This document shows positions 1,730-25,868 of a stretch of DNA of 64,000 nt, piece after piece (positions within the stretch are counted from its first letter, which is position 1; every line of letters begins with the position of its first letter). The DNA lies in assembly GCA_029551145.1 (NCBI GenBank), contig JAKPGA010000020.1, forward strand, positions 466 to 64,465. The letters are read 5' to 3'. Below the pieces are notes generated by a model, which saw only the letters and a program-made list of their open reading frames with translations, did no database searches and was not told the origin of the DNA. The position numbers were made by a program, and so were the translations under genes. The stretch is from Thermotogota bacterium. GTDB taxonomy: Bacteria > Thermotogota > Thermotogae > Thermotogales > DSM-5069.

Positions 1730-2614
1730 ATGTTTTTTGTGTGTGATGTGGGGGGAACGAATCTTCGAATGGCAGTTGTTGATGAAGAAGGTGTTATGCA
1801 CTCTAAGTCCAGATACCCCACACCAAAAGATTATGAACAATTCTTGCAACTCATAAACAAGGAATTCAGTGAAAGATCAAAGGAGTTTGAGATATCAAAG
1901 TGCTGTTTCTCGGTGGCTGGTGCGGTTTTTGGCGACAATCAGGTCTGGCTGCCAAATGTGTTTGGTTCCAAGCGGTACAACCTGATTTCCGATCTAAGAA
2001 AGAGCTTGGTAGGTGTGGAAGCCTTCGCAATAGATGATCGGGCGGCAGGATTGTTGGGAGAACTCTGGAAAGGATGCGCTGTCGGAAAAAAAGATGTACT
2101 CTACCTGATCGTAGGAACTGGCGTCGGTCTTGGAATACTTGCAAATGGTGTGCTGATCTCTGGTCATCAAGGTCTCGCTGGCTCAGTTGGGTGGATTCAG
2201 TTCGACGATCATCTAACGGGAAAGAGTGAAAACATAGAAAAATTGATCTCTTGCCCAGCGATTTTGGAGCGATTCAGAGTGGTGTGCGAAACACCGTTAG
2301 ACCGCACAGAAGAAGTCTTCGAGTTGTACAAACAAGGGCACAGCGGTGCAGAGGTCGTTGTCAAGCAAACCGCGACATATCTTGGAGATCTTCTTGCCAT
2401 TGTTGCAAACATCTTCAACCCACAGATGATAGTTCTTGCCGGGAGTCTGGCACTGCAGTGGGGTCTGTTACGGGCAATTACCAACGATGTCCTAAGAGAA
2501 AGGTTGAGCCCCGCTATGGAGCAGCCAGTTGTAGAGGCTTCATTTCTTGGTGAGGATGCACAGCTTTTTGGATGTGCAAAACACATACTAAAGTCCACAG
2601 AAAGGAGTGAGTGA
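1730..2614 (+). CDS. ROK family sugar kinase (no HTH)
   Basis: DVGGTNLRMA phosphate loop, GTGVGLG, NIFNPQMIVLAGS, LGEDAQLFG. Confidence 0.88.
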   Translation: MFFVCDVGGTNLRMAVVDEEGVMHSKSRYPTPKDYEQFLQLINKEFSERSKEFEISKCCFSVAGAVFGDNQVWLPNVFGSKRYNLISDLRKSLVGVEAFAIDDRAAGLLGELWKGCAVGKKDVLYLIVGTGVGLGILANGVLISGHQGLAGSVGWIQFDDHLTGKSENIEKLISCPAILERFRVVCETPLDRTEEVFELYKQGHSGAEVVVKQTATYLGDLLAIVANIFNPQMIVLAGSLALQWGLLRAITNDVLRERLSPAMEQPVVEASFLGEDAQLFGCAKHILKSTERSE

Positions 2615-3395
2615 ATTGTTGGCATTTGAGATTTACATCGAAAAGATCCAACAGATACTGGAGAAAATCAGAAGTGAGCAAAAGCAACAGGTTGAAAAGG
2701 CTGCAAATTTGATGGCCGAGTGTATCTTGAATGATGGTATGGTTCATATGTTTGGCAGTGGTCATTCGATTATACCGGTCTTGGATGCCTTCCCGAGGTA
2801 CGGAAGCTTTGTTGGAATAAACCCTTTGATAGATCCACGCTTGATGTGGTTCAGCCCGACAGGTCCAGCGAGTGCACCGGGATTGTTACTCATTGAAAGA
2901 AAAGAGGGTTACATCGAAGATGCATTTCTAAGATATCAACCGATCGCCAAAGGAGATGTTCTGGTTGTTTACTCACACGGAGGAGTTAATGCCGCACCGG
3001 TTGAGGTGGCTCTGTACGGTAAGAAGGTCGGCGCAACAGTTATCGCCGTACTCTCAATGGAAAATCAAGCGGTTGTGAAACCGACTCACAGCAGTGGAAA
3101 GAAATTGTCTGATATCGCTGATGTGATCATTGACAATTGTGTGCCACCCGAGGATGCCTTAGTAGATCTTGAAGGTCGCAAGGAAAGAATCGCGGCTTCT
3201 TCAACAGTAGCGGCGGTTGTTGTCACTATGTGTCTTGTGGCTGAAGCCGGTTCAATACTCCACAAGAAAGGAAAGGATTTGAAGATCTTTGTATCGCCGA
3301 ATGTCAAAGGGTTTGATGTGAATTACAACATAAAGATCTTTGATGAACACCAGAAAACGATATGCCAACACTATGCGAAGTTGAGGGGTGAGTGA
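2607..3395 (+). CDS. SIS-domain protein, UPF0309 type (SCO4393/NagS-like)
   Basis: FGSGHS, FPRYG, ERKEGY, SHGGVNAAPVEVA, IDNCVPPEDA and AASSTV motifs. Confidence 0.85.
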   Translation: MSELLAFEIYIEKIQQILEKIRSEQKQQVEKAANLMAECILNDGMVHMFGSGHSIIPVLDAFPRYGSFVGINPLIDPRLMWFSPTGPASAPGLLLIERKEGYIEDAFLRYQPIAKGDVLVVYSHGGVNAAPVEVALYGKKVGATVIAVLSMENQAVVKPTHSSGKKLSDIADVIIDNCVPPEDALVDLEGRKERIAASSTVAAVVVTMCLVAEAGSILHKKGKDLKIFVSPNVKGFDVNYNIKIFDEHQKTICQHYAKLRGE

Positions 3396-5553
3396 TTTGG
3401 ACACGTTCTTTCCTGTATCGGTGTGGTACGGACCTGATAGATCAAGGGCACCAATGGTTGGCAAAATCAAGTCGATGAGAGATACCGAGACAGAGATTGA
3501 AAGAATAAAATCCCTTGGCTTTAACTCGATCAGGTTTTGGTACGATTGGGCAACGGCAGAGAGAAAACCAGATAAATGGGATTTTTCAACGATAGACGCA
3601 CTCCTGACTATCACAGATAAGTTGAACATGAAGGCAATAGTCCAAGTCTACACAGATTCTGCGCCGAACTGGCTCGAGCGAGATTACCCGGATTCATTGT
3701 TCGTCGATAGATCAGGATTGGTGATACACTCTCAGGCTTCACCCGGATACTGCTCCGACCATCCAGTGGTGAGAGAACATATAGAGAAATTTCTTGAAAA
3801 ACTGGCTCAGGTTGTATCGTCGCATGATTCTTTCTACGCCTGGGATATCTGGTCAGAACCTCACATCGTTCAGTGGTCTTGGATAGATTACATAAAGGAT
3901 CCTTGGTTCTGCTACTGTGAGAATTCTCAGAAGAGATTTATTGAATGGCTCAAGAAGAAATATAAGACTATAGATGAACTGAACGATGCTTGGTACAGAA
4001 CACACGAGAGCTGGGAAGAAATAGTTGCACCAAGGTACATTTCTCTATCAAGTTTCAGAGATCTGCTTGACTGGATTCAGTTCAACATAGAAAAGATAGC
4101 AGATGACCTTGAATGGAAAGTGTCATCAATCAGAAAGGGTGATGGAAAACACACAATCTCAAGTCATGCGGCGATATCAAGTGTCTACGGAATACCCGGC
4201 ATCGGTTATGGTGCGTCCGATGACTGGAGACTTGCCGAGAAAGTTGATGTATGGGGCACATCGTTCTACCCGAAACACACAGGTTCATGGATGCCCCTTA
4301 AACCACATCACATGGGAGTCGCGCTTGACGCGAGTAGATCTTCCTGTGAAAGCCGAGGGAAACCATTCTGGATCGGCGAGTTGCAGACCGGTCACGGTGT
4401 CACCGGGATGAGATTTGGTGAACCCGTGGACAAATATGATGTCGAAAAATGGGCATGGCTTGCTGTTTCCAGAAATGCCAAAGGGTTAAACTACTATGCT
4501 TGGCTGCCCATGAGCTGTGGCTATGAGATCTCTGGTTTTGGTCTATCAGAGTACGATGGCTCAACAAATGAGAGGGCAGTTGCTGCCGGGAAGGTTTCGA
4601 AGACAATCACACAGAATATGGAGCTGTTTCTACGATCAAAACCATTGCAAGCAGAAGTGGCGATACTCTACAACATCGAAGCACACAAAGCCCTTGCCTG
4701 TCTGAGAGCAGAAAGCGCTGAGATCATTCGCAAAGATATGTTCGGGATGTACAAAGCGCTCATGAACTATGGTTGTACAGTTGATTTTCTGCACTTAACA
4801 GATCTGAACAAAGATTTGTCAAGATACAAATTGATAATACTCCCATTCTCAATCGCGATGACTGAAGAGGCCGCCAAAGCGATAGAGAAATATGTCGCCA
4901 GCGGCGGAACTGTGCTATCAGATGGTCGAATAGCCTGGATGAAAGACGATGGAACACTGTGTGAAAAGATACCGGGCCTTGGACTTGATGAATTGTTCGG
5001 ATGCGAAGAGCTGTGGATGAAAGAGGTGAAAGAACCGACAACATTTGAATCATTTGGGTTAACTCTTTCAGCTTGCAGGTACATCTCAACCTACAGGGTC
5101 AAGGCAGGAAAGGTTCTCGCAGAAATCAAAGAGCAGCCGTTGATAATTGAAAACAACTATCTTTCTGGGAAAGCCATCATGGTCGGTACACTGATCGGAG
5201 CAGGTTATGAGGAAACAGGAAATGTTAACAATCTCGAGTTCTTGAGACAAATCGCATCGCGGTGTGGTATCAAAAAGAGATATTTCGTCCAACAGAAAGA
5301 TGGCAGCACAGATGAACTTGAAGTGAGATTGGCAACTTCTCACAACGGCTTACTGGTTTATCTTTTCAACCACGGCAACGACAACTGCAGTTTTGATCTT
5401 TCAGTTTCCGAAGATCTTTTCAATGGTAGTTTCACCAACGCTAAGTGCTTGAACTATCCAGTTGAAATCTCTGTTGAGCGCGGCAACGCAATTGTGACGA
5501 TGAAAGACATAAAAATGAACGCCGGTCAAACGTTGGTCATTTGGTTCAAATGA
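3388..5553 (+). CDS. GH42-like (clan GH-A) glycoside hydrolase, beta-galactosidase-like
   Basis: GFNSIRF, WATAERKPDKWDF, acid/base WDIWSEP, nucleophile IGELQ, and a GATase-like trimerisation domain (YVASGGTVL). Confidence 0.88.
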   Translation: MSDLDTFFPVSVWYGPDRSRAPMVGKIKSMRDTETEIERIKSLGFNSIRFWYDWATAERKPDKWDFSTIDALLTITDKLNMKAIVQVYTDSAPNWLERDYPDSLFVDRSGLVIHSQASPGYCSDHPVVREHIEKFLEKLAQVVSSHDSFYAWDIWSEPHIVQWSWIDYIKDPWFCYCENSQKRFIEWLKKKYKTIDELNDAWYRTHESWEEIVAPRYISLSSFRDLLDWIQFNIEKIADDLEWKVSSIRKGDGKHTISSHAAISSVYGIPGIGYGASDDWRLAEKVDVWGTSFYPKHTGSWMPLKPHHMGVALDASRSSCESRGKPFWIGELQTGHGVTGMRFGEPVDKYDVEKWAWLAVSRNAKGLNYYAWLPMSCGYEISGFGLSEYDGSTNERAVAAGKVSKTITQNMELFLRSKPLQAEVAILYNIEAHKALACLRAESAEIIRKDMFGMYKALMNYGCTVDFLHLTDLNKDLSRYKLIILPFSIAMTEEAAKAIEKYVASGGTVLSDGRIAWMKDDGTLCEKIPGLGLDELFGCEELWMKEVKEPTTFESFGLTLSACRYISTYRVKAGKVLAEIKEQPLIIENNYLSGKAIMVGTLIGAGYEETGNVNNLEFLRQIASRCGIKKRYFVQQKDGSTDELEVRLATSHNGLLVYLFNHGNDNCSFDLSVSEDLFNGSFTNAKCLNYPVEISVERGNAIVTMKDIKMNAGQTLVIWFK

Positions 5554-5583: not shown

Positions 5584-6876
5584 ATGAGAAAGTCGTTAGT
5601 TTTGTTACTCGTGGCTGTACTCAGTCTTGTCGGTATCAGCGGTCTTGCAAAGACGAAGTTGATCTTTGCTGTTCACTGGTCAGACTATCAGGTTGAAGGA
5701 GTCAAGGACGAAAAAGAGAACATCACGGTGAAAGGGTTAAGGCAGTATGTTGAAGAGTATCAGAAATCGAACCCAGATGTTGAGATCGAGATTCAATCTG
5801 TGCCATTTGACGATTATCTCAAGCGCATACTGATCAGTCATACTTCTGGTGTTATTGCCGATGTGTACGTTTTGTACTCGCTCTGGGGTGTTCAACTGGT
5901 TGATTCTGGGATCCTCGATCAAGTCCCAAAAGATATCGTCGACAAAATCAAGAGTAATTTCGTCAGAGCTGCCGTAGATGGTGCAACCATTGACAAGGCC
6001 ATTTGGGGTGTGCCAGTGGAAGTAGACAATTACGCTCTCATTTACAACAAAAAACTCTTACAGGAAGCCGGTTTCAATCAGCCACCAAAGACGTGGGATG
6101 AACTGGTCGCAATGGCACCGAAACTAACCAAAAAGAATCCCGATGGAACGATCGCGCAGTATGGTTTCGCCTTCCTCTCCGGTTGGGATTCTGCCGTTGT
6201 GCATCCATATTTGGCACTCTTGCACAGCAACGGCGGAAAAATGTTCACAGATGATTTCACAGAATGTTTGCTCACTTCAAAAGAAGCAGTGGAAGCCCTT
6301 GAAGCAGAACTCAAACTCTTCAAGAATGGTGCGACCGATCCAGCGGCAAGTGTGTGGAACTTCCCGGCAGGTAAAGTCGCAATGATGATAATGGCACCGT
6401 GGTATGAGACATCTCTGAAACTGGGGTTCAAAGATCAGTACGAAGAAACAGTAGGGGTTGCTCCAATACCCTATTTGAAAAAACCTGCGACGGCTGGATA
6501 CACCTGGTTCATCGCGGTTGACGCAGCTTCAAAGAACAAGAAAGCCGCTTGGGACTTCATCAGATGGATGACCCTACAGGATGCCGGTGGTTTCACCAGA
6601 ATGGGCGAACTGATGGCAAAGAACATAGGTGCAATTCCACCAAATAAAACAGATATCAATTACTTCAAAGGCGAACTTGATGATCTGTACACATCTGTTT
6701 TTGTTAAGGAATTGGAAAACACTTATCAAGAACCGAACGTGGCGCAGGGACAGGAAATCAAAACAATACTCATGAGAGAGATCATCGAGGCATGGAATGG
6801 CCGCAAGACAGCTGAAAAGGCATTGAGTGATGCAAAGGTGCAGATCGACAAAATACTGGCTGAGTTCTACAAATGA
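5584..6876 (+). CDS. CUT1 sugar ABC transporter substrate-binding protein
   Basis: Signal peptide, LIYNKKLLQEAG..PPKTWDEL motif. Confidence 0.93.
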   Translation: MRKSLVLLLVAVLSLVGISGLAKTKLIFAVHWSDYQVEGVKDEKENITVKGLRQYVEEYQKSNPDVEIEIQSVPFDDYLKRILISHTSGVIADVYVLYSLWGVQLVDSGILDQVPKDIVDKIKSNFVRAAVDGATIDKAIWGVPVEVDNYALIYNKKLLQEAGFNQPPKTWDELVAMAPKLTKKNPDGTIAQYGFAFLSGWDSAVVHPYLALLHSNGGKMFTDDFTECLLTSKEAVEALEAELKLFKNGATDPAASVWNFPAGKVAMMIMAPWYETSLKLGFKDQYEETVGVAPIPYLKKPATAGYTWFIAVDAASKNKKAAWDFIRWMTLQDAGGFTRMGELMAKNIGAIPPNKTDINYFKGELDDLYTSVFVKELENTYQEPNVAQGQEIKTILMREIIEAWNGRKTAEKALSDAKVQIDKILAEFYK

Positions 6877-6891
6877 AGGGAGTTTTCAACG

Positions 6892-7806
6892 TTGGCTTGC
6901 AAACTCTTTTCCAGTAAACGTAAATCCTTGGAGCGGAACACAGGGGCAGGGTATCTGTTCCTTGCCCCTGCATTGCTCTTCTACTCACTGTTTTTCATAT
7001 ACCCGGTGATCTTCTCTTTCATTGTATCCACAAAAAGATGGAACATGTTGGTGCCTCTATCCAGAGCAAGAAATGTGGGATTTTCAGAGTATTCTTATCT
7101 GCTCAAAGACGAGATGTTCTTGGGAGTCTTGACCAACACGCTGATTTACGCATTACTTACCGTTTCTCTGACGATAACAATTGCGCTCATATTGGCTGTT
7201 TTGATCAACGGTGCAAAGCTTTCGGTGCTATGGAGATTCATCTATTTTGCACCGGTCGTAACTCCACAGGTCGCCATAGGTACTATTTGGGGATACCTGT
7301 ATCGACCAAACAACGGGCTGTTGAATTCGATACTCAGATTATTCGGCATGAAACCTGTGTACTGGCTAACTGATCCAAATGTTGCTTTGTTTTCCATCAT
7401 CGCTACGGCGGTGTGGGCTGGCATAGGTGGATCAATGCTCATTATCACTGCCGGATTGAAGAACATACCACAGGATTATTATGATGCAGCCAAGATCGAT
7501 GGTGCCGGACCGTTCAGGCAGTTTTTCTACATCACAGTGCCTTTGCTTTCTCCAACTCTGCTCTTTCTAACTGCGACTGGGTTCATAGGTGCATGGCAGG
7601 TGTTCGACTTGCCATTCACAATGGGAAGAAATGCGCCTGCAAGAAGTGTCATGACTGTCTCATGGTATGTCTACGAAACGGCCTTTCAATCACTGAGAAT
7701 GGGAAGGGCATCTGCGGGGGCCTTTCTGCTGTTTTGTATCATCTTTGTTTTCACTCTGCTTATCCTCTGGATCTTCAAGCGTGGAGGGATCAAGGGATAT
7801 GAATAA
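6892..7806 (+). CDS. CUT1 sugar ABC permease
   Basis: YLFLAPALL, EAA loop IPQDYYDAAKIDGA, multiple TM segments. Confidence 0.93.
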   Translation: MACKLFSSKRKSLERNTGAGYLFLAPALLFYSLFFIYPVIFSFIVSTKRWNMLVPLSRARNVGFSEYSYLLKDEMFLGVLTNTLIYALLTVSLTITIALILAVLINGAKLSVLWRFIYFAPVVTPQVAIGTIWGYLYRPNNGLLNSILRLFGMKPVYWLTDPNVALFSIIATAVWAGIGGSMLIITAGLKNIPQDYYDAAKIDGAGPFRQFFYITVPLLSPTLLFLTATGFIGAWQVFDLPFTMGRNAPARSVMTVSWYVYETAFQSLRMGRASAGAFLLFCIIFVFTLLILWIFKRGGIKGYE

Positions 7807-8644
7807 AAAAGTGACAAAAATCTTCCTTGAGATACTGCGATACACGATAATTGTGTTTGGTGCATTCTGGATGATTTTACCTTTCTTTTGGCTTTTTTCA
7901 GCATCTTTGATGACTCCACAGGAATTGCTGTCGGATACTCCAAGATGGTTACCCGAAAGACCACAATGGGGTAATTACCTTCAGGTTCTGAAGAGAGTAC
8001 CGATATTCACCTATTACAAAAACAGCGTGATTGTAGCAACTTCTGTTACAGTTCTTGTGATTCTCACAAGTTCTATGGCTGGTTTTGCTTTCGCCAAGCT
8101 CAGGTTCCGTGGCAGGAGAATTCTTTTCAGTTTTGTTCTGTCGACCATGATGTTCCCCGTTTTTATATTTCTCATACCTGTGTACTATCTTATGAAATTA
8201 TTCGGTTGGTTGAATAGCTATCTGTCTTTGATTGTCCCGTTCGCGGTCAGCGGATATGGCATCTTTTTGTTGAGACAGTTTGTCATGACCATACCAGATG
8301 AGTTATTGGATTCAGCGAGGCTTGACGGGGCAAAGGAGTTCAGAATCTATTCAACGATTATCCTTCCTTTGATAAAACCAGCTCTTGCCACTCTGGCAAT
8401 ATTGACCTTCATAGGACAGTGGAATTCCTTTCTCTGGCCTCTCATTGTCACATCCAACGCTCAAAAACTGATCACACTGCCTGTGGGCATATCGAGGCTT
8501 TCTCTCGCGTTTTCAACTACTGAAACACAGCACCTCATATTGACGGCTCTCGTGTACCAGGTTGTGCCAATGGTTATCCTGTTCTTGTATTTACAGCGCT
8601 ATTATGTGAAAGGTTTTGTGCTCAGCGGTTTTTCGAATCTGTAG
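7799..8644 (+). CDS. CUT1 sugar ABC permease
   Basis: IPDELLDSARLDGA EAA loop, WNSFLWPLI; ATG 7799 overlaps the upstream stop. Confidence 0.93.
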   Translation: MNKKVTKIFLEILRYTIIVFGAFWMILPFFWLFSASLMTPQELLSDTPRWLPERPQWGNYLQVLKRVPIFTYYKNSVIVATSVTVLVILTSSMAGFAFAKLRFRGRRILFSFVLSTMMFPVFIFLIPVYYLMKLFGWLNSYLSLIVPFAVSGYGIFLLRQFVMTIPDELLDSARLDGAKEFRIYSTIILPLIKPALATLAILTFIGQWNSFLWPLIVTSNAQKLITLPVGISRLSLAFSTTETQHLILTALVYQVVPMVILFLYLQRYYVKGFVLSGFSNL

Positions 8645-8691
8645 TTCTTCTTGTCGGTCGCAGAGTGTATAATCACATTTGGGTGATGATG

Positions 8692-9807
8692 ATGTTGAGG
8701 TCTTTATTCAAAGCGAGAGTTGACTTGCTAAGGGATTTTGTTGAACAAAGAGGTTTTGATGGAATCCTTCTGAGCAGATGCGACAATTTCTCATGGTTTA
8801 CCTTTGGTGCGCGAAATCACATCACACTCAACACAGAGGTCGGCACAGCCCATGTTTTTGTAAACCAAGAGAGTGTTTACATTTTCACGAACAACATAGA
8901 AAGAAAACGAATTGAAAAAGAAGAAATGGACGAAGAGATATCTTCGCAAGTTGAATTTGGTGAGTACCTCTGGTCGAAGAACATGGCAGATGTTCTAAAA
9001 CCTTTTATCAGTGGCAAAAAGATAGTTTCAGATACAGGTATGCTTGGCACAGTTGACCTCAAAGCCCAGATAGATCTACTTCGGTATGCGATGAGTGACT
9101 TTGAACTGAAGACATATCAAGATTTGGGAGCTGCGTGCGATGAAGTGCTGAACAGAAAAATGAAAGAGCTGAAGCCTGATATGACGGAGCTTGAAGTGCA
9201 CGGGATTGTGTACAGCTCCTTGGCAAAGGAAGGAATTGAACCTATCTTTGTCATGGTGAGTGGTGAGGAGAGTGCCAATCTGTACAGACACAATCTACCA
9301 AGGAATGTGAGATTGGGCAAGAAGGTGTTTGTGAGTATTTGCGCGCGCAAAAGAGGGTTAGTTGTTTCTGCTACGAGATCTGTTCTGTTTGAAAAAGATC
9401 AGGCACTGATCGATCAACACAAACAGAACTGTTACATCGACGCGGTGGCAATTTCAAATTCAAAGGTTGGAGTGAAACTCAGCACGGTCTTTGAACAGAT
9501 CAAGAAGGCATACGCAGAGGTTGGAAAGCCTTATGAATGGATGCTCCATCACCAAGGAGGTCTTGCCGGTTACAACGCAAGAGAGATCATAGCCAACGAG
9601 CTGACAGACTATGAACTGAGAGTCGGCAACGTCGTTGCTTGGAACCCGACGATCACAGGAACAAAATCTGAAGACACCGTTGCCTTGACGCAGGACGGTG
9701 TCAAGATCATAAGCTACTACGAAAAAAGCGACTGGCCATGTGTGGAATTTAAGATGAATGGCATGTTGATAAGAAGGCCAGATTTGCTCGTTGTCAGGCG
9801 AGGGTGA
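8692..9807 (+). CDS. M24 (pita-bread) fold hydrolase, Xaa-Pro peptidase/creatinase-like, with metal ligands partly lost
   Basis: Creatinase-N-like domain, HHQGG, WNPTI, KSEDT. Start chosen after GGGTGA RBS. Confidence 0.78.
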   Translation: MLRSLFKARVDLLRDFVEQRGFDGILLSRCDNFSWFTFGARNHITLNTEVGTAHVFVNQESVYIFTNNIERKRIEKEEMDEEISSQVEFGEYLWSKNMADVLKPFISGKKIVSDTGMLGTVDLKAQIDLLRYAMSDFELKTYQDLGAACDEVLNRKMKELKPDMTELEVHGIVYSSLAKEGIEPIFVMVSGEESANLYRHNLPRNVRLGKKVFVSICARKRGLVVSATRSVLFEKDQALIDQHKQNCYIDAVAISNSKVGVKLSTVFEQIKKAYAEVGKPYEWMLHHQGGLAGYNAREIIANELTDYELRVGNVVAWNPTITGTKSEDTVALTQDGVKIISYYEKSDWPCVEFKMNGMLIRRPDLLVVRRG

Positions 9808-9809
9808 GA

Positions 9810-10664
9810 ATGATGTGGTCTTCACTCATATTCGAATTGTTCTGGATGGTTCTAATCCTGAGTTTTTTCATACCTTTTATTCGCGCAAACATGCAGAGAT
9901 CGACAAGAGACACGCTCATAAGACAACTTGAGACGAAAAGAAAAAGCCGTGTTATCACGTTGATACACAGGCAGGAATCAATGAGTTTCTTTGGATTCAC
10001 CTTTGGTAGATATATAAACATAGAAGATTCAGAGGAAGTGCTCAGAGCAATCAAGCTCACACCGGTCGATATGCCCATAGACATTATTCTTCATACCCCA
10101 GGTGGATTGGTCTTGGCGGCTGAGCAGATCGCAAGGGCTCTGGTGAGACACAAGGGGAAGGTGACTGTTTTTGTACCACACTACGCGATGTCAGGTGGGA
10201 CACTCATCGCACTGGCAGCCGATGAGATAGTTATGGATACCAATGCGGTGTTAGGACCACTTGATCCGCAGATAGGCAATTATCCAGCACCATCTATCCT
10301 CAGCGTACTTGAAAAAAAGGATATGAACGAAATAGACGATGAAACACTTATCCTCGCCGATGTTGCCAGAAAGGCAATCGAGCAGGTGAAGGATTTCATC
10401 AGTTGCCTGCTCACAGAAAAGGTTGGAGAGCAGAAGGCTAAGGAACTCGCAGAAACTCTTTCAAGCGGTAAATGGACCCATGATTATCCGATAACAATAG
10501 AGATGCTCAGAAAGATGGGACTACCCGTTTCGGATCAGATGCCAGAAGAGGTGTACCAACTGATGAACCTTTACAAGCAAACAGAACAAAGGAGGCCCTC
10601 TGTACAATATATACCTGCCCCATACAAGAGTGGTGAGCAAAACAACAGATCGATGCGGCTTTGA
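9810..10664 (+). CDS. Membrane-anchored SDH-family ClpP-like serine protease
   Basis: N-terminal TM, HTPGG, AMSGGT, DPQ, WTHDYP (Ser-Asp-His triad). Confidence 0.88.
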   Translation: MMWSSLIFELFWMVLILSFFIPFIRANMQRSTRDTLIRQLETKRKSRVITLIHRQESMSFFGFTFGRYINIEDSEEVLRAIKLTPVDMPIDIILHTPGGLVLAAEQIARALVRHKGKVTVFVPHYAMSGGTLIALAADEIVMDTNAVLGPLDPQIGNYPAPSILSVLEKKDMNEIDDETLILADVARKAIEQVKDFISCLLTEKVGEQKAKELAETLSSGKWTHDYPITIEMLRKMGLPVSDQMPEEVYQLMNLYKQTEQRRPSVQYIPAPYKSGEQNNRSMRL

Positions 10665-15868: not shown

Positions 15869-16786
15869 TCAAAAGAATCTTTTCAGATGCTCAAGACCCA
15901 TTTTCAAACCGATCTGGGATTTTTGCACAGTGCCTGCCCAGACCGGGTCTTCATGTTCTATGCTGACGACAAAGTCGTATCCGATTCTCTTGAGCGCGAG
16001 TATGAATTCCTCCCAGTCTATCTCCCCAAGACCTGGGAGCCTGTAGGTCCACCAGCTCTTGCCATGCAGATTAGTCCCGAAGTGACCAAAGATTCCCTGT
16101 TCATCGAGCAGATTCTCTTCTATCTGAACATCCTTCGCATGGACGTGAAAGATTCTGTCTTTGAATTCTTCAACAGCCTTTATGTAATCAATGCCAAGCC
16201 AGTAAAGGTGAGATGGATCAAAGTTCAAACCAAAAGAATCGGGGGTTATTCTGAAGACTTCCCTCCACAACTGTGGTGAGTAGAAGATATTGCCTATCTT
16301 CTCATCTTCCTGCCAACCTACCATCGGGCAGTTTTCTATCATGAGTTTTACATTTTTCTTCTCGGCATAGGCAATCAGAGGTTTGAAGACCTTTTCAAAC
16401 TCCACCAAATTCTCCTCGACCGACTTTGTTATATCCCTACCAATGAAGGTCCCAACCAATTCCACTTTCAGTAGGTTTGCAACATCTATGACCTTCTTCA
16501 AATGATCGTTGATCTGTTTTCGCTTTTTTGGATCTGAGTCAAGGTTGTTATCATAATAAGCCAGAGAGGATATAATCAAACCATATTTGTCAAGCAGTTT
16601 TCTGGTTTCTTCTGCCTTCTTCTTGTTGAAATCAGTTACATCTATCGTCGTTGAAGAAAAATCCCTTTCATTCACAAGCGGCCATACGGCAACTTCCAGC
16701 GCCTCAAAACCATTCTTGGAAGACCATGATGCGATCTCTTCTAATTTCGTGTTCCCAAGGGCGACAGTCAGAAAGCCAATTCTCAT
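15869..16786 (-). CDS. Sugar phosphate isomerase/epimerase (AP-endonuclease-2 TIM barrel)
   Basis: IENCPM, FDPSHL, HVHAKD, LPGLGEIDW, SIEHED. Confidence 0.88.
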   Translation of the reverse strand: MRIGFLTVALGNTKLEEIASWSSKNGFEALEVAVWPLVNERDFSSTTIDVTDFNKKKAEETRKLLDKYGLIISSLAYYDNNLDSDPKKRKQINDHLKKVIDVANLLKVELVGTFIGRDITKSVEENLVEFEKVFKPLIAYAEKKNVKLMIENCPMVGWQEDEKIGNIFYSPQLWREVFRITPDSFGLNFDPSHLYWLGIDYIKAVEEFKDRIFHVHAKDVQIEENLLDEQGIFGHFGTNLHGKSWWTYRLPGLGEIDWEEFILALKRIGYDFVVSIEHEDPVWAGTVQKSQIGLKMGLEHLKRFF

Positions 16787-16809
16787 AGCTCTACCTCCTC
16801 TTAAGGGCA

Positions 16810-16831
16810 GGGTCAGGCAAGAGCCTGACCC
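16810..16831. other. Intra-operon stem-loop downstream of SBP gene
   Basis: GGGTCAGGC-aaga-GCCTGACCC, perfect 9 bp. Confidence 0.6.
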
Positions 16832-16836
16832 AAGTC

Positions 16837-17784
16837 CTAAAAGACTGATTCTGGGAAATAATAATCTTTTGCGTTTTCTTTGGTCACAGTTTCGGTGGCA
16901 AGAATGATCTTTCTCGGTATGCCTCTTTGATAGAACCCGTTGAGATCCTGTTTTCTCAGTGCCATGACCGCAAGGTTAATCGCCGTCGAGATCATGTTTG
17001 GTGGATAGGTGAAGTTAACTCCGATGAGTGGGTGTCCATCCATGATCATCTTGACCATATTTTTCTCGCAGGCTCCTCCTACCAATACCATGTTTTTGTC
17101 TCTGCCAGCCTGTTTGAGCGCCAAGAGCACACCATGGAGCATGTCGTCATCACCGGTCCAAACTGCATCGATGGTACCGAACTTTGTGAGCAGTGTCTGC
17201 ATTACTTCAAAGGCTTTTTCTCTACTCCAATAACCAGGTTGCTCTGCGATGATCTTCAGGTCTGGGTACAGACTTATCGCATCTTTGAAGGCCTGGACTC
17301 TCTCATCATCGATGCTGCATGGAATACCTCTTATGACCACGATATTGCCTTTTCCTTTGAGCTTTTCAGCTATGTACTTGCCTGCCAGATAACCGTACAT
17401 GTAGTTGTCTCCAGCTATGTAGCAGTTGTACTCCTCGGAGTTTATACCCCTGTCCACGATCACCGTGAAAATACCCTGTCTGAAGGCCTGTACGCATATC
17501 GGTGTGAGTGGTGCAGATTCGTATGGGTTGATCACAAGAGCGTCGATCCCTTTTGCCATAAGTGCCTGAACCTGTGCAATCTGTTCACTCGGTTCCTTTG
17601 CTGTCACCAAATAGAACTCGACGTCTGGATCGTTCTGATACTGTTTGATCGCATACTGTGCCCACCAGACCATTCCGCCTGTCCATCCGTGATCTGCTGC
17701 AGGAATTGCCACACCTACTCTGATTTTTGCAGCAAAGCTGAGTACAACTATTGCCAGAACAAGAAACACCAAAAACTTTCTCAT
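16837..17784 (-). CDS. CUT2 (RbsB-like) sugar ABC substrate-binding protein
   Basis: Signal peptide, periplasmic-binding type I motifs (GIDALVINP, GDNYMYG). Confidence 0.92.
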   Translation of the reverse strand: MRKFLVFLVLAIVVLSFAAKIRVGVAIPAADHGWTGGMVWWAQYAIKQYQNDPDVEFYLVTAKEPSEQIAQVQALMAKGIDALVINPYESAPLTPICVQAFRQGIFTVIVDRGINSEEYNCYIAGDNYMYGYLAGKYIAEKLKGKGNIVVIRGIPCSIDDERVQAFKDAISLYPDLKIIAEQPGYWSREKAFEVMQTLLTKFGTIDAVWTGDDDMLHGVLLALKQAGRDKNMVLVGGACEKNMVKMIMDGHPLIGVNFTYPPNMISTAINLAVMALRKQDLNGFYQRGIPRKIILATETVTKENAKDYYFPESVF

Positions 17785-17820
17785 AAGAACACCTCCCTTG
17801 ATATTCCCCCACGTGGGGTA

Positions 17821-18783
17821 TCATTCTTTTCTCAAATTCTGCAGCAACACCGCTGCGATTATGATCAAACCTTTCACCATGCCCTGCAGATAAACCGCAA
17901 CATTGAGCATGACGAGCATGTTGTTTATGACACCCAGTATCAAAGCACCAAAAAACGTTCCGAAGACGCTACCCTTGCCACCGCTGAGACTCGTTCCACC
18001 TATCACCGCTGCAGCTATCGCGTCCAGTTCAAAGCCATTGCCCGTCGAAGAGGAACTCACAGAGCTCATCATAGAAGAGAGCAACACAGCGGATGTAGCA
18101 ACTGAGACCCCACTGACCACATAGGTCAGAGTTCTCACCATATCTACCTTGATAGCCGAGTACAGAGCCGCCGTTTCATTTGCGCCAACGGCATAAACAT
18201 GTCTGCCGAATTTCGTTTTATCCAGTAGAATATAGGCAACAATTGCGTAAGCAATGAACACTATCATTGGAAGAGGCAACCCAAGGACGAATTTCATGCC
18301 TATGTCTGAGTACTTCCTTGAGATTGTCATATACACGCCACCGTTAGCGAAATTCAAGACCAAAGATCTGTAGATCGCCATACCACCGAGTGTCGTAACA
18401 AAAGCGGGTATCTTTCCCTTGGTCGTCAGCAACCCCGTACCAAAGCCAAGCAGTATTCCCAAACCATAGGTCAACAGAATTGACAAAAAGACTGATAAAG
18501 CACTGTCACCGAATTTATTGACACTTTGAATTGCCAAAGCTCCCAATAGGGCAACCATCGATCCAACTGAAAGGTCTATTCCCCCTGCTATCATCACAAA
18601 AGTTATTCCAATTGCGATTATTCCAACGTACGATGTCTGCCAGAAAATATTCAGGATATTTCTTGGTTTCAGAAAAGCAGGGCTGAGTATGCCAGAGAAG
18701 ATCATCAACGCCACCAAGATGAAAACTATTATGTACTTGGAGAGATTCAGCTTGAAAGTCCACTTATCCTTTATAAGAATCAC
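17821..18783 (-). CDS. CUT2 (RbsC-like) sugar ABC permease
   Basis: [30 protein letters not shown]. Start approximate. Confidence 0.92.
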
Positions 18784-20275
18784 CTTCCTCCAAGCCCGTT
18801 GCGTGATATATAAGGTTCTTCTCGCTGATCTGCTCACCCGATATGCAAGCAGTGATCTCACCGCTTCTCATCACCATTATCCTGTTGCAAATGCCAATGA
18901 TCTCAGGTAACTCAGATGAAACAACTACGAAGGTCGCGTCGTACTCTTTTATCATCTGATGCATGATTTCGTATATTTGATGCTTTGCATTCACATCAAC
19001 ACCACGGGTTGGCTCATCGAAGATGAAAATCTTTGCCCCTGTGTTGACCAATTTGGATATGACCACCTTCTGCTGATTTCCACCACTCAGTGTTTTTGCA
19101 AGTTGAAAGGGTGTTCTTGTTTTTATATCGAACTTTTTCTCGTAATTTCTAAAAGTTTCGATTTCCCTTCGCCTGCCAAGGAGCACCTTTGAGAATTTCT
19201 CAAGGGACATGATCGTGGTGTTCATGAAAACCTGCAACGATAGGATAATTCCAGCGGTCTTTCTGTCCTCGGGAAGATAAACTATCCCGAGCTTTTTGGC
19301 GTCTTGCGGTGATTCAATCTTGACCTGCTTACCATTAAGCAGTATCTGACCGCTGTCAACCTTTCTGACACCTATTATCGCTTCCATTAGCTCGGTTCTA
19401 CCGGATCCAACAAGACCATAGAAACCCAGTATTTCACCTTTGCGAACCTCAAAGTTCGCATTTTTCACCGTTCCATCTTTCGTGGTTAGATTCTTAACTT
19501 GCAGAATCAGCTCGTTTGATGGTGAAAGTTTCGGTGGGTACATCTCGTCAATTTTTCTACCTATCATCAACTCTGCGATCTGTCTTTCGGAAAGCTCTTT
19601 GGTCTTGCCCTCGTGCACTTTTCTTCCATCCCTTAGAATGATCAAACTGTCTGTCACAACCTTGACCTCTTTGAGTTTGTGTGAGATGAAGACAACGGTG
19701 ATGCCAGAATTTTTCATGCTTCTTATCACATCAAACAGCTTCGATATTTCTTCTTGGCTCAAAGATGAAGTCGGCTCATCCATTATCAATATCTTCACGC
19801 TTTTTGAGATTGCCTTTACTATCTCCACCATTTGTTTTTGTGCCGGTGAAAGCTCTGATACATAGGTTTGTGGATCAATTCTCAAACTCAGTTGCTGCAT
19901 ATACCTTCTTGTCGCTTCAATCATGGAACTTCTGTTAAGGAAAAACCCCTTTCTCACTTCACTGCCCAAGAAAACATTTTCGTAAACTCTGAGGCTGTCA
20001 ACCAGGTTTAGTTCCTGCGGAATGAGAATTATGCCGTATTCTTTTGCCTTCAATGGATTAAGTTGCACTTTGTGACCTTCGATGAAGATGTCACCGCGTG
20101 TGGGCTGTAAGAAACCGGAAAGAATTCTCATCAGCGTTGATTTTCCTGCCCCATTTTCGCCTACCACACCGTAGACCATACCTTTCTCAAACTGCACATC
20201 AACGTTGTGCAAAACCCTTACAGATGAAAAATCCATGCAAATATCCTTGGCTGAAAGGATCACTTCATCAACCAT
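18764..20275 (-). CDS. CUT2 (RbsA-like) tandem ABC ATPase
   Basis: GENGAGKSTL, LSGGNQQKV, DEPTRGVDV. Confidence 0.95.
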   Translation of the reverse strand: MVDEVILSAKDICMDFSSVRVLHNVDVQFEKGMVYGVVGENGAGKSTLMRILSGFLQPTRGDIFIEGHKVQLNPLKAKEYGIILIPQELNLVDSLRVYENVFLGSEVRKGFFLNRSSMIEATRRYMQQLSLRIDPQTYVSELSPAQKQMVEIVKAISKSVKILIMDEPTSSLSQEEISKLFDVIRSMKNSGITVVFISHKLKEVKVVTDSLIILRDGRKVHEGKTKELSERQIAELMIGRKIDEMYPPKLSPSNELILQVKNLTTKDGTVKNANFEVRKGEILGFYGLVGSGRTELMEAIIGVRKVDSGQILLNGKQVKIESPQDAKKLGIVYLPEDRKTAGIILSLQVFMNTTIMSLEKFSKVLLGRRREIETFRNYEKKFDIKTRTPFQLAKTLSGGNQQKVVISKLVNTGAKIFIFDEPTRGVDVNAKHQIYEIMHQMIKEYDATFVVVSSELPEIIGICNRIMVMRSGEITACISGEQISEKNLIYHATGLEEGDSYKG

Positions 20276-21305
20276 TTATCTTTACCGTCCCCCCAACCTT
20301 GGAAGACTCAAAAATCTTCTCAACCACCTTTACAGCCATCATTCCATCTTCAGGTTTAACTATCGGTTTTTCAATGCCAAGACAAACCTTTGCAAAGTGG
20401 TCTATAACGGGCATTTTCCAGTACGGATCTTCATTTGTGAACAAGGGCTTCAGGACGATTTCACCGTGAAAAACCACCGGTTTTGACAGGTAAATATCGA
20501 TCTTTGAAGGATCTGTTTGTCCTATCTTCAAAGCGCCCTTTTCACCGTAGATGACAAAATAATTTTCTTCCAAGCCTTTGGTTATCCAGTTTGCGTCCAA
20601 AGTCGCAAGTCCACCGTTTGAGAGCCTTAAAACTGCGCTCGCGATATCTTCAACACTCGCATCTTTTTCCAGCGTTCCAACCATCGCCGCGCATTCAACT
20701 ATCTCCAAACCCGTCAGATATCTGATCAGGTCCACTTTGTGTACTCCAAGATCTCCCAGGGCTCCAAACATGGCTGAATCTTTCTGGAAAAACCACGCGG
20801 CGTTGGGTGACCAGTTCTCGGGACCGGAATGTCCAAACATTGTTTTCACGAGTCGTACTTCTCCAATCATGCCAGACTCAATTATCTCTTTCGCCCTTTG
20901 GTGATGGGGAAAGAATCTCTGTGAGTGGTTTGTCATGAGAATCTTGCCCCTTTGTTTAGCTGTCTGAACCATTTGCAGTGCTTGCTCAGAATTGGTTGCC
21001 ATGGGTTTTTCAACAAGCACGTGTTTTCCCATTTTCAAAGCATCGAGTGATGCCTTCGCGTGAAGAAAATTCGGCAGGGCAACTACCACAGCATCGATAT
21101 TTTCTTTTTCAAGTAGCTCTGAATATTCCGTGTAAAAATGTATTTTTTCATCATTGAGCTTTTTTCTGAAGAAATCCAGTCTCTCCTCGCTCTTGTCCGA
21201 TATTGCCACAAGCTGAACGTATTCAGAAAGGTATGCGTTTGGAATGTGTAATACCTCAGAGATCTTTCCCGCGCCTATGATACCTAATCTGATCTTCTCT
21301 GGCAT
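20268..21305 (-). CDS. Gfo/Idh/MocA family NAD(P)-dependent oxidoreductase
   Basis: GIIGAG, GKHVLVEKPMA, DLGVHKVD. Confidence 0.93.
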   Translation of the reverse strand: MPEKIRLGIIGAGKISEVLHIPNAYLSEYVQLVAISDKSEERLDFFRKKLNDEKIHFYTEYSELLEKENIDAVVVALPNFLHAKASLDALKMGKHVLVEKPMATNSEQALQMVQTAKQRGKILMTNHSQRFFPHHQRAKEIIESGMIGEVRLVKTMFGHSGPENWSPNAAWFFQKDSAMFGALGDLGVHKVDLIRYLTGLEIVECAAMVGTLEKDASVEDIASAVLRLSNGGLATLDANWITKGLEENYFVIYGEKGALKIGQTDPSKIDIYLSKPVVFHGEIVLKPLFTNEDPYWKMPVIDHFAKVCLGIEKPIVKPEDGMMAVKVVEKIFESSKVGGTVKING

Positions 21306-21318
21306 CTTTACCGCCTCC

Positions 21319-21957
21319 TCAAATCTGGGTCATATGAACGAGCCTCTTGTTGAATGGAGCCAGTGGAAACCTGGAACCGTAATGCTTGAAAACTTCGGCG
21401 AATTCACAACCAACTTGAATTCCCCTGAAACCTGCCGGATAGATGATCGATGGCATGATCTCCTTTACGAAAACATGCTTGTCGAAGGCAGCTTCCATGA
21501 GTTCAATCGCCCTTTTCTTGTATTCGTATGAAGTTGTTATGTCAATGGCCACATCGAAGTCAAAACCAACGCTCGAAGCTGGAATCTCAAAAAGGTATAT
21601 CTCTTTTTCGAATTTCCTAGCAAGCCTGACCGTTTGCTCAGAAACAACTTGGTGATCATACAAGATCTCTGTATGCCAATGTGTGAACACGACATGAGGG
21701 TTAAATTTCTCAAACAGCTCTTTGAGATCTTCGAACAACTTTGTCTCATCTATTTTTCCGTAGGAATAATCAAAATGAACAGCTTGCGCACCGAGTGTTT
21801 CTACTGCTTCTTTGAAACCTGAGATTCTATCCCCACAGACACTCAGAACACAAACCTGATTTCCATTCAAAGATAACTGTCGTATCGTTCCTCCCATACC
21901 GATCACAGGATCGTCGCTATGGGCAGAGGTAACAAGGATCTTTTTCAAACAGATCAT
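21319..21957 (-). CDS. PIG-L/LmbE family deacetylase
   Basis: AHSDD, GGT, VFTH..YDH, YLFE, FAEVF. Confidence 0.85.
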   Translation of the reverse strand: MICLKKILVTSAHSDDPVIGMGGTIRQLSLNGNQVCVLSVCGDRISGFKEAVETLGAQAVHFDYSYGKIDETKLFEDLKELFEKFNPHVVFTHWHTEILYDHQVVSEQTVRLARKFEKEIYLFEIPASSVGFDFDVAIDITTSYEYKKRAIELMEAAFDKHVFVKEIMPSIIYPAGFRGIQVGCEFAEVFKHYGSRFPLAPFNKRLVHMTQI

Positions 21958-22946
21958 TCCTTTCTTTTTGAACTCGACTGCCTCACCACCAGTTGGGGTG
22001 AGAAGATGTACCTTTTTATCTTCTTGTTTCCCTTGATCAATTCAAAAAGTAGTTTTGCGGACACCTCACCCATCTCTTCGACTGGCTGGTGAACCGATGA
22101 CAAAGACGGCGATACGACTTCGCACAACTGTTCATCATCGTCAAATCCGACAATTGCAATGTCTTCCGGTACCCTTAAAGAAAATTCTCTGACTGCCTTC
22201 AGAGCACCCACTGCGACAAGATCGTTCATACAGAAGACACCATCTACCCTTTGTCCCGAGGAGAGTATTTCTTTCATCTTTTGGTAGCCTTTATCTTCAT
22301 CGTACCCAACAGGGTAGGCGATTGCTTTTAGATTAAACTCCTTCATCGCTGCTCTGTAGCCTTCGAGCCTCTGGAGTGAGACATACAGTTCATAGGTTCC
22401 ACCAAGATGAACGATGTTTGAGCAGCCATTTTCAATCAGGTGTTTCGTCGCGGAATATGCGCCGTAAAAGTTGTCCAGCACTATTGAAACAACGTTTTCA
22501 TGATCATAGTCCTTGTCGAAAACCACAACGGGGATGTACGAAGACACCTCCAACACAAGATCGTCGCTAACACGAGAGTTTCCTATGATGATCCCGCCCA
22601 CGCCAAAAAACCTCGCGTTTCTTATGAGCATCTCTTCTCTGTGCAGATCCCTGAAGGAGTCCATCAAAATCACCAAAGAATCCTCACCACAAGCCTTTTC
22701 GACCCCGCGTGTGAGCCGAGCGAAGAACGGGTTTATTATGTCTGGCACAATGAGTCCAACGGTCGTGATCTGGGTCCTTTTTGCCATAGTTCTGGCATGA
22801 AAATCCGGTGTATAACCGAGCTCTTTGGCAACTTTCAAGATTTCTCTGCGCTTTTTCTCACTGACCTTTCCCTTGCCGTTCAACACCTTTGAGACGGTGG
22901 AGACTGAAACCTTTGTTAGATCAGCTATTTGTTTCAGCGTTGCCAC
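21954..22946 (-). CDS. LacI family transcriptional regulator
   Basis: TLKQIADLTKVSVSTVSKVLN HTH, LGYTP hinge, GFDD. GTG start follows GGGAGG. Confidence 0.95.
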   Translation of the reverse strand: MATLKQIADLTKVSVSTVSKVLNGKGKVSEKKRREILKVAKELGYTPDFHARTMAKRTQITTVGLIVPDIINPFFARLTRGVEKACGEDSLVILMDSFRDLHREEMLIRNARFFGVGGIIIGNSRVSDDLVLEVSSYIPVVVFDKDYDHENVVSIVLDNFYGAYSATKHLIENGCSNIVHLGGTYELYVSLQRLEGYRAAMKEFNLKAIAYPVGYDEDKGYQKMKEILSSGQRVDGVFCMNDLVAVGALKAVREFSLRVPEDIAIVGFDDDEQLCEVVSPSLSSVHQPVEEMGEVSAKLLFELIKGNKKIKRYIFSPQLVVRQSSSKRKE

Positions 22947-22972
22947 TCTCAGACCTCCCAGAATGCTCAGTA

Positions 22973-23950: not shown

Positions 23951-23962
23951 CAGAACACCCCT

Positions 23963-24832: not shown

Positions 24833-24834
24833 GT

Positions 24835-25851: not shown

Positions 25852-25868
25852 ATTATTCCCTCCTGAGG

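Follow-up and report, generated by a model that had tools for sequence, protein, structure and literature searches.

A GH42-like glycosidase clade with serine before its predicted acid/base glutamate, encoded beside ROK kinase and UPF0309 genes

The glycosidase and its operon

We analysed a window of 64,000 nucleotides from a Thermotogota bacterium (GCA_029551145.1, contig JAKPGA010000020.1, positions 466 to 64,465 of the forward strand), in which the gene at 3388-5553 (+ strand, as for all features below unless stated) encodes a GH42-like three-domain retaining glycosidase of a clade marked by the motif W-D-x-W-S-E-P. In the 721-residue translation, Pfam finds Glyco_hydro_42 at residues 32-398 (1.8e-43) and Glyco_hydro_42M, the GH42 trimerisation domain, at residues 422-603 (3.9e-20); an NCBIfam scan gave no fitting model. 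An earlier note on this DNA had placed WDIWSEP at the acid/base position and IGELQ at the nucleophile, which the translation, the HMMER alignments and the MAFFT register confirm. The first motif (W-D-I-W-S-E-P, residues 152-158, 3841-3861) lies at the end of barrel strand 4, where Ser156 replaces the O2-binding Asn and Glu157 is the predicted acid/base, and the second (I-G-E-L-Q, residues 329-333, 4372-4386) lies on strand 7 with Glu331 as the predicted nucleophile. Ser156-Glu157 aligns with the Asn-Glu of 'NNE/SNE', and Glu331 with the nucleophile Glu of 'PF..ME', in the solved GH42 beta-galactosidases 9ta3, 3tts and 4oif (HMMER), and a MAFFT alignment with canonical GH42 paralogues gives an identical register. 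The codon of Ser156 is TCA, two base changes away from an Asn codon.

Two further motifs carry residues of the substrate pocket. In G-T-S-F-Y-P-K-H (4255-4278), Ser292 stands at the second O2/O1 ligand (Asp285 of the GH42 enzyme BiBga42A), Tyr294 is kept, and Lys296 and His297 are clade-specific; in Y-Y-A-W-L-P-M-S-C-G-Y-E-I-S-G-F-G (4492-4542), the stacking platform Tyr370 and the O4 ligand Glu380 are kept and Gly383 takes the place of the O6-binding His. The zinc-binding Cys4 cluster of GH42 is incomplete, with C122, C175 and C177 kept and Ser180 at the fourth position (3907-3927 together with C122), and further residues of this cluster are lost in the haloarchaeal homologue. Since no signal peptide was found in the window's glycosidase, the enzyme is predicted to be cytoplasmic. 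No other GH42-family gene was found in the window's genome.

An AlphaFold2 model built on 50 homologues (predicted local distance difference test, pLDDT, 93.3; predicted template-modelling score, pTM, 0.94) shows, in line with Pfam, the three domains of the GH42 fold, namely a TIM barrel, a trimerisation-type alpha/beta domain and a C-terminal beta domain, and DSSP places the catalytic motifs at the ends of strands 149-154 and 327-333. GH42 structures match it with a Foldseek template-modelling (TM) score of 0.80 and VIA Z 31-34 over about 640 residues at 18-21% identity, and the GH164 beta-mannosidase (6T5O) with TM 0.74 and VIA Z of about 32 at 16-17% identity. A GH35 beta-1,2-glucosyltransferase reaches Z of about 30 and four structures of the archaeal exo-beta-glucosaminidase GlmA reach Z 29-30, and a profile search of the PDB gave 5e-60 for GH42 and 1e-20 and 9e-15 for GlmA. 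Judged by sequence and by the model, the glycosidase appears nearer to GH42 than to GlmA, with the model nearly equidistant from several families.

The operon begins with a GntR/HutC-type regulator (940-1725; Pfam UTRA 8.4e-36, GntR 4.1e-17), followed by a ROK-family sugar kinase without the ExGH/zinc-Cys motif (1730-2614; Pfam ROK 3.1e-38) and a UPF0309/SIS_2 phosphosugar enzyme homologous to NagS (2607-3395; Pfam SIS_2 6.6e-42); the ROK gene overlaps the SIS gene, and the SIS gene the glycosidase start, by 8 nucleotides each. Downstream of the glycosidase lie genes for an ATP-binding cassette (ABC) sugar transporter, namely a CUT1-type substrate-binding protein (5584-6876; Pfam SBP_bac_1 2.2e-42) and two permeases (6892-7806 and 7745-8644; both Pfam BPD_transp_1). 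The position of the binding-protein gene is the same in the Thermotogota loci, where the first permease gene is also kept downstream of the glycosidase gene. There is no ATPase gene at the transporter locus, and the operon has no Leloir genes. No close characterised homologue of the binding protein was found, its best matches being maltose/trehalose-type proteins, which are uninformative.

A clade with a remodelled -1 subsite

The 50 homologues were chosen by similarity, not by motif, and extend from 80% down to 35% identity, through Pseudothermotoga and other Thermotogota, Dictyoglomia, Bacillota, Chloroflexota, Gemmatimonadota, Asgard archaea, Hadarchaeota, Micrarchaeia and haloarchaea. W152, D153, W155, S156, E157, P158, G330, E331 and Q333 are invariant in 50/50, as are S292 and Y294. 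Residues new to the clade include the invariant Q86, Y88, Q116, D124, D153, W155, H260, D278, D279, H297 and Q333 and the nearly invariant H159 and K296 (the latter at least 90% conserved). Because the motif residues are invariant in homologues chosen in this way, the alignment excludes chance or a sequencing error as the origin of Ser156. A scan seeded with the motif, in which each species was represented by one genome, gave a relative in at least 583 genomes, with Acidobacteriota as the largest group; this set was picked by the motif and therefore measures spread, not conservation. The 83 loci fetched for comparison were likewise retrieved with the motif, whose invariance among them is circular and is not counted as evidence.

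The paralogues were compared in five genomes that carry several GH42-family genes. The canonical ones score 390-470 bits to PF02449, read W-Q-I-D-N-E and have D/G-N-E at the acid/base site, while members of the Ser clade score 150-172 bits in the same comparison. A third GH42-like clade, at about 110 bits, keeps the Asn and reads W-L-L-M-N-E-P and T-E-L/F-Q; its members are found at L111, L113 and L120 in the Acidobacteriota genomes G005, G009 and G006, and no characterised member was seen. In a maximum-likelihood tree each of the three groups lies on one side of a branch with support of 100/100 or 100/99. The Ser clade has its own branch (100/100), apart from both canonical GH42 and the L-L-M-N-E-P clade, and the latter groups with the Ser clade against canonical GH42.

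In the -1 subsite of BiBga42A, O2 is bound by Asn159 and Asp285, O3/O4 by Arg121, the axial O4 by Glu366, O6 by Trp326 and His369, and O1 by Tyr287, with Phe356 as the stacking residue (PMC10688820). Among 301 aligned GH42 enzymes, all characterised, Arg121 is reported to be highly conserved and to be the sole hydrophilic non-catalytic residue of the GH42 pocket (PMC12887932). These ligands were mapped onto the window protein by three HMMER alignments and one MAFFT alignment, all of which agree. Both O2 ligands have become invariant Ser (Asn159 to S156, Asp285 to S292), Arg121 is Ser or Ala (S118/A), Trp326 is a variable residue (M341) and His369 is the invariant G383; Glu366 (E380), Phe356 (Y370), Tyr287 (Y294) and both catalytic Glu are kept. 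Of the eight non-catalytic residues that bind galactose in GH42, the clade has thus lost five. By these alignments the whole -1 subsite has been rebuilt, rather than one residue changed, and the 2-hydroxyl is probably no longer read. The earlier note, which had argued from the single residue, was thus right about the Ser and missed both the remaining subsite and the conserved gene module described below.

Its premise that the Asn before the acid/base in clan GH-A binds the 2-hydroxyl agrees with Asn159 of BiBga42A (PMC10688820) and with Asn159 of a GH164 beta-mannosidase, which binds O2 of mannose (PMC7105311). GlmA, as the note also said, has Asp at this position for a 2-amino group: Asp178 binds the 2-ammonium group, and the D178N variant is dead (PMC6566704). 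In CsxA, Ser468 precedes the acid/base Asp469, and the amine is held by the distant Glu394 (PMC6566704). Characterised relatives acting on 2-hydroxyl sugars keep the Asn. Two exo-beta-glucosaminidases are known by structure, GlmA with Asp at this position and CsxA with Ser, so that Ser here has one precedent, a glucosaminidase. The proposal of the earlier note, a new specificity for a C2-modified sugar, is indirectly favoured in its C2-modified part by the clade-invariant Ser, by the second O2 ligand, which is also Ser, by the amino-sugar operon and by the Ser of CsxA. The same precedent tells against newness, since the specificity may then be a known activity (exo-beta-D-glucosaminidase, EC 3.2.1.165, which releases GlcN from the non-reducing end of chitosan oligosaccharides) and not wholly new. 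With moderate confidence we regard the enzyme as a retaining clan GH-A exo-beta-glycosidase for a 2-amino-2-deoxy (or 2-acetamido) hexose, with beta-D-glucosamine (GlcN) as the leading candidate.

The clade could instead hold ordinary beta-galactosidases, beta-mannosidases or beta-glucosidases for neutral sugars in which the change from Asn to Ser is tolerated, the ROK protein being a hexokinase and the SIS protein a hexose-6-phosphate isomerase. The database names of clade members, all 'beta-galactosidase' or hypothetical, speak for this, as do the fold, which is as near to GH42 (Z 34) as to GH164 (Z 32), a Halosimplex homologue that adjoins a galactonate dehydratase gene, and the existence of archaeal SIS-type phosphoglucose and phosphomannose isomerases (PGI/PMI). 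However, the loss of most of the galactose ligands, and the Asn for O2 that both GH42 and GH164 keep, make a plain beta-galactosidase or beta-mannosidase unlikely. Leloir genes are also missing, NagA, NagB or PIG-L genes are the recurrent neighbours, and the SIS protein belongs, by its sequence, to the NagS/MurQ branch and not to the PGI branch. We consider a neutral-sugar enzyme highly improbable, and the 'beta-galactosidase' annotation in hundreds of genomes is probably wrong.

Partner enzymes and the gene module across genomes

The window ROK reads A-G-S-V-G-W where the ExGH and Cys zinc motifs would stand. Together with 48 module-linked ROKs it shares A-G-[SAC]-x-G-W, with G151 and W155 invariant; at the column of the catalytic Asp103, all rows that have a residue there have this Asp. 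Its best PDB matches are glucokinases and N-acetylmannosamine (ManNAc) kinases, about equally, which gives no substrate hint.

The SIS protein scores 252.6 bits to NCBIfam NF002805 (cut-off 135), and its PDB matches are 3cvj (8e-35) and SCO4393/NagS (2e-26). H53, R64, E94 and N228 of NagS correspond to H53, R64, E97 and N232, both candidates for D179 (D176 and D183) are kept, and these catalytic residues are invariant or nearly so in 60 sequences. Module SIS proteins are 52-58% identical between phyla and have the signature S-H-G-G-x-N. NagS dehydrates the 6-phosphate (6P) of N-acetylglucosamine (GlcNAc) and also turns over ManNAc-6P; it does not bind GlcN-6P, Glc-6P, Fru-6P or GalNAc-6P, the last being the phosphate of N-acetylgalactosamine, and the family is related to MurQ (PMC12680351). 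GlcNAc-6P dehydratase activity is not expected of the window SIS protein, since NagS homologues at about 30% identity are inactive on GlcNAc-6P (PMC12680351). The chemistry open to it would be abstraction of the C2 proton on an open-chain 6-phosphate.

Linkage was counted in 51 related loci in which the glycosidase gene is flanked by at least 3 kb in either direction. A SIS gene lies within 3 kb of it in 37/51, a ROK gene in 32/51 and both in 30/51, in bacterial as well as archaeal phyla, and a homologous GntR gene lies within 6 kb in 20/51. The order is GntR-ROK-SIS-glycosidase-ABC in Thermotogota. Bacillota have GntR, a secreted GH-A-like/CBM32 enzyme, ABC, glycosidase, ROK and SIS; Acidobacteriota have (PIG-L) SIS-glycosidase-ROK followed by a major facilitator superfamily (MFS) transporter, and some of these loci also have a gene for a TonB-dependent receptor or, in convergent orientation, for a NamZ-PBP4B fusion. 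In Asgard archaea and Hadarchaeota nagA is divergent from SIS-glycosidase(-ROK); the Hadarchaeota loci add a true nagB (321 bits) and a pyrophosphate-type phosphofructokinase (PFK), and the Asgard loci a PfkB kinase.

The secreted protein, of about 620 residues, is found in module operons of Bacillota and one Thermotogota (L009:13548-15419, L029:4300-6180, L032:424-2259, L058:4379-6250 and L070:4378-6249). Its C-terminal CBM32 best matches chitosan-binding modules, weakly (E about 1e-4). The N-terminal domain belongs to no Pfam family and gives weak GH51/GH44/GH39/GH79-like signals, with Atlas leads that are GH39/GH79/GH51-like; the protein may cut the source polymer. In three Acidobacteriota (L043:14363-16897, L053:8282-10699 and L055:14323-16806), a gene convergent with the module encodes a PBP4B/AmpH-like serine hydrolase fused to the exo-beta-N-acetylmuramidase NamZ (N and C domains) and bearing a signal peptide.

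Bona fide NagA (TIGR00221, 321-341 bits) occurs in Asgard, Hadarchaeota and Anaerolineae loci. A PIG-L deacetylase gene adjoins the module in 11 loci, all from Acidobacteriota, and elsewhere PIG-L genes sit in other parts of the genome. The 11 PIG-L-linked and the five NagA-linked loci do not overlap, which suggests that deacetylation, by either route, belongs to the pathway. Diderm lineages encode a glycosidase with a signal peptide and a PIG-L protein with a twin-arginine signal, followed by the MFS transporter, ROK and SIS genes; neither signal type was found in the Thermotogota, Bacillota, Chloroflexota and archaeal glycosidases. The exported diderm glycosidase and PIG-L would therefore act together outside the cytoplasm, leaving the monosaccharide to the kinase and the SIS enzyme. 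Among the matches of the acidobacterial PIG-L, diacetylchitobiose deacetylase did not come first, and the ranking gave no substrate hint.

These neighbours bear on a route in which the acetyl group is retained. The sugar at -1 would then be 2-acetamido, e.g. beta-ManNAc (from ManNAc-beta-1,4-GlcNAc of Gram-positive wall polymers) or N-acetylmuramic acid (MurNAc), ROK an N-acetylhexosamine kinase, and the UPF0309 enzyme the one that turns the N-acetylhexosamine 6-phosphate into GlcNAc-6P, by C2 epimerisation or C3 elimination, with NagA and NagB to finish. The C2 pocket fits this in being enlarged rather than charged, both O2 ligands having shrunk to neutral Ser. NagS, whose catalytic residues are conserved here, binds GlcNAc-6P and ManNAc-6P and not GlcN-6P; ManNAc kinases are among the zinc-less ROKs in the PDB match list; NagA, NagB and PFK beside the Hadarchaeota module would give each gene a role; and the NamZ-PBP4B fusion (3 loci) and L-Ala-D/L-Glu epimerases tie some loci to cell-wall salvage. 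However, the periplasmic deacetylase of Acidobacteriota would be pointless if the acetyl group were retained, and NamZ beside the module would duplicate a muramidase role. The window's genome and other bacterial carriers already have NanE and canonical MurQ, the latter accompanied by a GH3 enzyme and a set for D-lactate oxidation, and we know of no precedent for a beta-N-acetylmannosaminidase. On balance we hold a 2-acetamido substrate of this kind to be unlikely, though far from negligible.

A galacto-configured sugar, beta-galactosamine (GalN) or beta-GalNAc, in a galactose pocket altered only at C2, appears quite improbable. The SIS protein would here be an AgaS-like GalN-6P deaminase, and the resulting tagatose-6P would be phosphorylated by the cluster-linked PFK or PfkB. 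In accord with this, the enzyme is of GH42 ancestry and retains Glu380 for O4 and Tyr370 for stacking, PFK (3 loci) and PfkB (Asgard) genes adjoin the module, and NagA deacetylates GalNAc-6P; another GalN-6P enzyme is found in few genomes, which would explain an indispensable SIS gene. Against it, Arg121, the other ligand of the axial O4, is lost, and Glu380 does not discriminate between O4 configurations because the equivalent Glu of GH164 binds an equatorial O4. Moreover, GalNAc-6P is not a ligand of NagS, the loci showed no tagatose-bisphosphate aldolase, and abundant beta-linked GalN glycans are not known to us.

Several simple roles for the SIS enzyme were tried and rejected. PF01182 is absent from the window's genome (94.6% complete) and from a sister Pseudothermotoga; replacement of a missing NagB fails as a general rule, as PF01182-family proteins (NagB or Pgl, undistinguished) are present in 8/9 other module-bearing genomes and a true NagB lies beside the module in Hadarchaeota. 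Two double-SIS proteins of the window's genome, of 333 and 355 residues (C2:40881-41603 and C43:37517-38272), could be deaminases, or enzymes of GlmD/NagB-II or FrlB type. Replacement of MurQ was rejected because the window's genome has a full cluster of GH3, MurQ and peptide-type ABC genes with a D-lactate oxidase/electron-transfer flavoprotein (ETF) set; MurQ occurs in 2/3 bacterial carriers checked and in 0/3 archaeal genomes. Replacement of NanE was rejected because NanE is present in the window's genome and two other bacterial carriers. A 6-phospho-beta-glycosidase acting after a disaccharide kinase was also rejected, since the enzyme exported in diderm lineages sits where no ATP is available.

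Among other loci of the window's genome, the muropeptide cluster on contig C33 (L132:1910-11671) is canonical, with a NagZ-like GH3 enzyme, MurQ (341.8 bits) and a peptide-type ABC transporter, and is divergent from a gene for an oxidase linked to flavin adenine dinucleotide (FAD) and the ETF alpha/beta genes, which could oxidise the D-lactate released by MurQ. Contig C16, outside the window, carries an amino-sugar-like cluster in one direction (L097:3990-8397; PIG-L deacetylase, BadF/BadG-type kinase, GH4 glycosidase and MFS_2 transporter) that adjoins a sulfatase-family gene. A LacI-regulated cluster within the window (15869-25872, - strand) has a short PIG-L-like protein (21319-21957), whose counterpart in a sister genome is some 16 kb away from the module, together with a Gfo/Idh/MocA oxidoreductase, three xylose-isomerase-like TIM-barrel proteins and a ribose-type ABC transporter. 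At 8665-10664, transcribed in the direction of the sugar operon, are a gene for an M24 (creatinase/prolidase-like) protein (8665-9807; Pfam Peptidase_M24 2e-10, no NCBIfam family) and, with a 4-nucleotide overlap, one for a ClpP-like serine protease of SDH type (437.8 bits). This pair is conserved in the closest relatives only, and membership of the M24 protein in the module is doubtful, with a homologue in 2/83 loci.

A candidate amino-sugar pathway and known systems

The route that we infer, in its sugar, the order of its steps and the SIS reaction, would run as follows in the window's genome, which is of Pseudothermotoga type. The ABC transporter would import a disaccharide or short oligosaccharide, from which the cytoplasmic glycosidase would split off a non-reducing 2-amino-2-deoxy or 2-acetamido hexose by a retaining mechanism, with Glu157 as predicted acid/base and Glu331 as predicted nucleophile. 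The zinc-less ROK kinase would make the sugar 6-phosphate, and the UPF0309 enzyme would carry out a step of C2-proton abstraction (deamination/isomerisation or other) that feeds glycolysis or a NagA/NagB route, while the GntR/UTRA repressor may sense the phosphorylated intermediate. The glycosidase would thus correspond in function to archaeal GlmA and to CsxA of family GH2.

The chitin route of Thermococcus, Dac-GlmA-GlmD, consists of a PIG-L deacetylase, a GH35/42-like glycosidase and a SIS-fold enzyme. Glucosamine is the leading candidate because the three enzyme families match this route, because Ser has its precedent in CsxA, because the deacetylase is exported alongside the glycosidase, and because some operons hold the secreted enzyme with the weakly chitosan-like CBM32.

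A number of observations weigh against the amino-sugar reading. The pocket loses a carboxylate near C2 (Asp285 to Ser), while GlmA gained one, and model confidence is lowest in the loop that follows the acid/base (pLDDT about 70). Neither ROK nor SIS lies within 6 kb in 10/51 loci, and the member in Halosimplex marinum (L002/L025, 2371-19837) has no ROK or SIS neighbours and adjoins a galactonate dehydratase gene (557.6 bits). That locus also holds IclR regulators, a creatininase-family protein, an ornithine/diaminopimelate decarboxylase, a peptide-type ABC transporter and a DgaE-like pyridoxal-phosphate ammonia-lyase, and it hints at an oxidative amino-sugar or galactose route. A literature search found no characterised clade member. 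NagS, the sole characterised UPF0309 enzyme, does not bind GlcN-6P, and its distant homologues are inactive on GlcNAc-6P (PMC12680351), which leaves the SIS step unexplained. Were GlcN-6P the product, NagB would suffice, and there are the Hadarchaeota NagB and the PF01182 carriers already mentioned; canonical MurQ and NanE are likewise present in bacterial carrier genomes. Many carriers thus have NagB, MurQ and NanE in addition to the module, and ideas of simple non-orthologous replacement fail. That the SIS gene is so strictly linked and so highly conserved suggests a step beyond the housekeeping enzymes, and for this reason sugars of ManNAc, MurNAc and GalN type stay alive as rivals to glucosamine.

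All three module enzymes depart from their families. The changes in the glycosidase fall where relatives read the sugar C2, and those in the kinase at the ExGH-type motif, which we take to be another such site; deviation of all three enzymes, in two of them at C2-reading sites, points to a dedicated amino-sugar pathway. It is tempting to go further, and we suggest tentatively, as a possibility that we would not yet expect to hold, that the clade founds an undescribed specificity in the GH42-like fold, as a family of its own by its distance from GH42, GH164 and GlmA, and forms with ROK and the module UPF0309 an unrecognised amino-sugar route (for GlcN, GalN, ManNAc or some other hexose modified at C2) in at least 583 bacterial and archaeal species (soil, sediment and thermophilic), in which the UPF0309 reaction lies outside those of NagB, NagA, MurQ and NanE. 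New would be the rebuilt specificity pocket in an undescribed operon, the GH42-like fold and the retaining mechanism being known. In soil and sediment, amino sugars are a large pool of nitrogen and carbon, and the necromass of microbes and fungi is turned over there by Acidobacteriota, Thermotogota, Asgard archaea and Hadarchaeota, among which the module occurs. Identification of the substrate would give a function to the UPF0309 proteins outside Streptomyces, which the NagS study left unassigned, and would also supply a thermostable enzyme for the processing of amino-sugar oligosaccharides.

The clade can be compared to several known systems. With GH42 enzymes (BiBga42A, 8IBR-8IBT; Bca-beta-gal, 3TTS; Gan42B, 4OIF), a family of beta-galactosidases and alpha-L-arabinopyranosidases, it has in common the three-domain architecture and the catalytic Glu residues of strands 4 and 7, as well as an aromatic residue for stacking, the O4-binding Glu and the Tyr that follows strand 6. 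It has Ser-Glu for Asn-Glu, Ser for Asp285, none of Arg121, Trp326 and His369 and an incomplete Cys4 cluster, and its gene context, without genes for galactose utilisation, is one of amino sugars, not of galactan or lactose. The GH164 enzyme Bs164 (6T5O) shares the three-domain, trimer-type fold, with a Glu that binds O4/O6, but keeps Asn159-Glu160 (the Asn on O2), where the window clade has Ser-Glu, and its Arg75 bridges O2 and O3. NagS (SCO4393) is confined to Streptomycetaceae without linkage to a glycosidase, unlike the module SIS protein. GlmA (GH35; 5GSL, 5GSM, 6JOW, 8OUG) has the common GH35/42-like three-domain fold and likewise a replaced Asn before the acid/base, but with Asp rather than Ser and with GH35-type -1 ligands; the Asp-Glu motif is not found here. 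GlmA works in a cytoplasmic disaccharide route with a PIG-L-family deacetylase, the double-SIS enzyme GlmD and an ADP-dependent kinase, whereas the genes beside the window glycosidase are those of UPF0309 and ROK proteins, with PIG-L adjoining the module in the 11 Acidobacteriota loci. CsxA (GH2, Amycolatopsis orientalis) is, like the window enzyme, a retaining member of clan GH-A with Ser directly before the acid/base; it differs in family, in domain architecture and in having Asp469 as acid/base, and the likeness is thus one known at the level of the clan.

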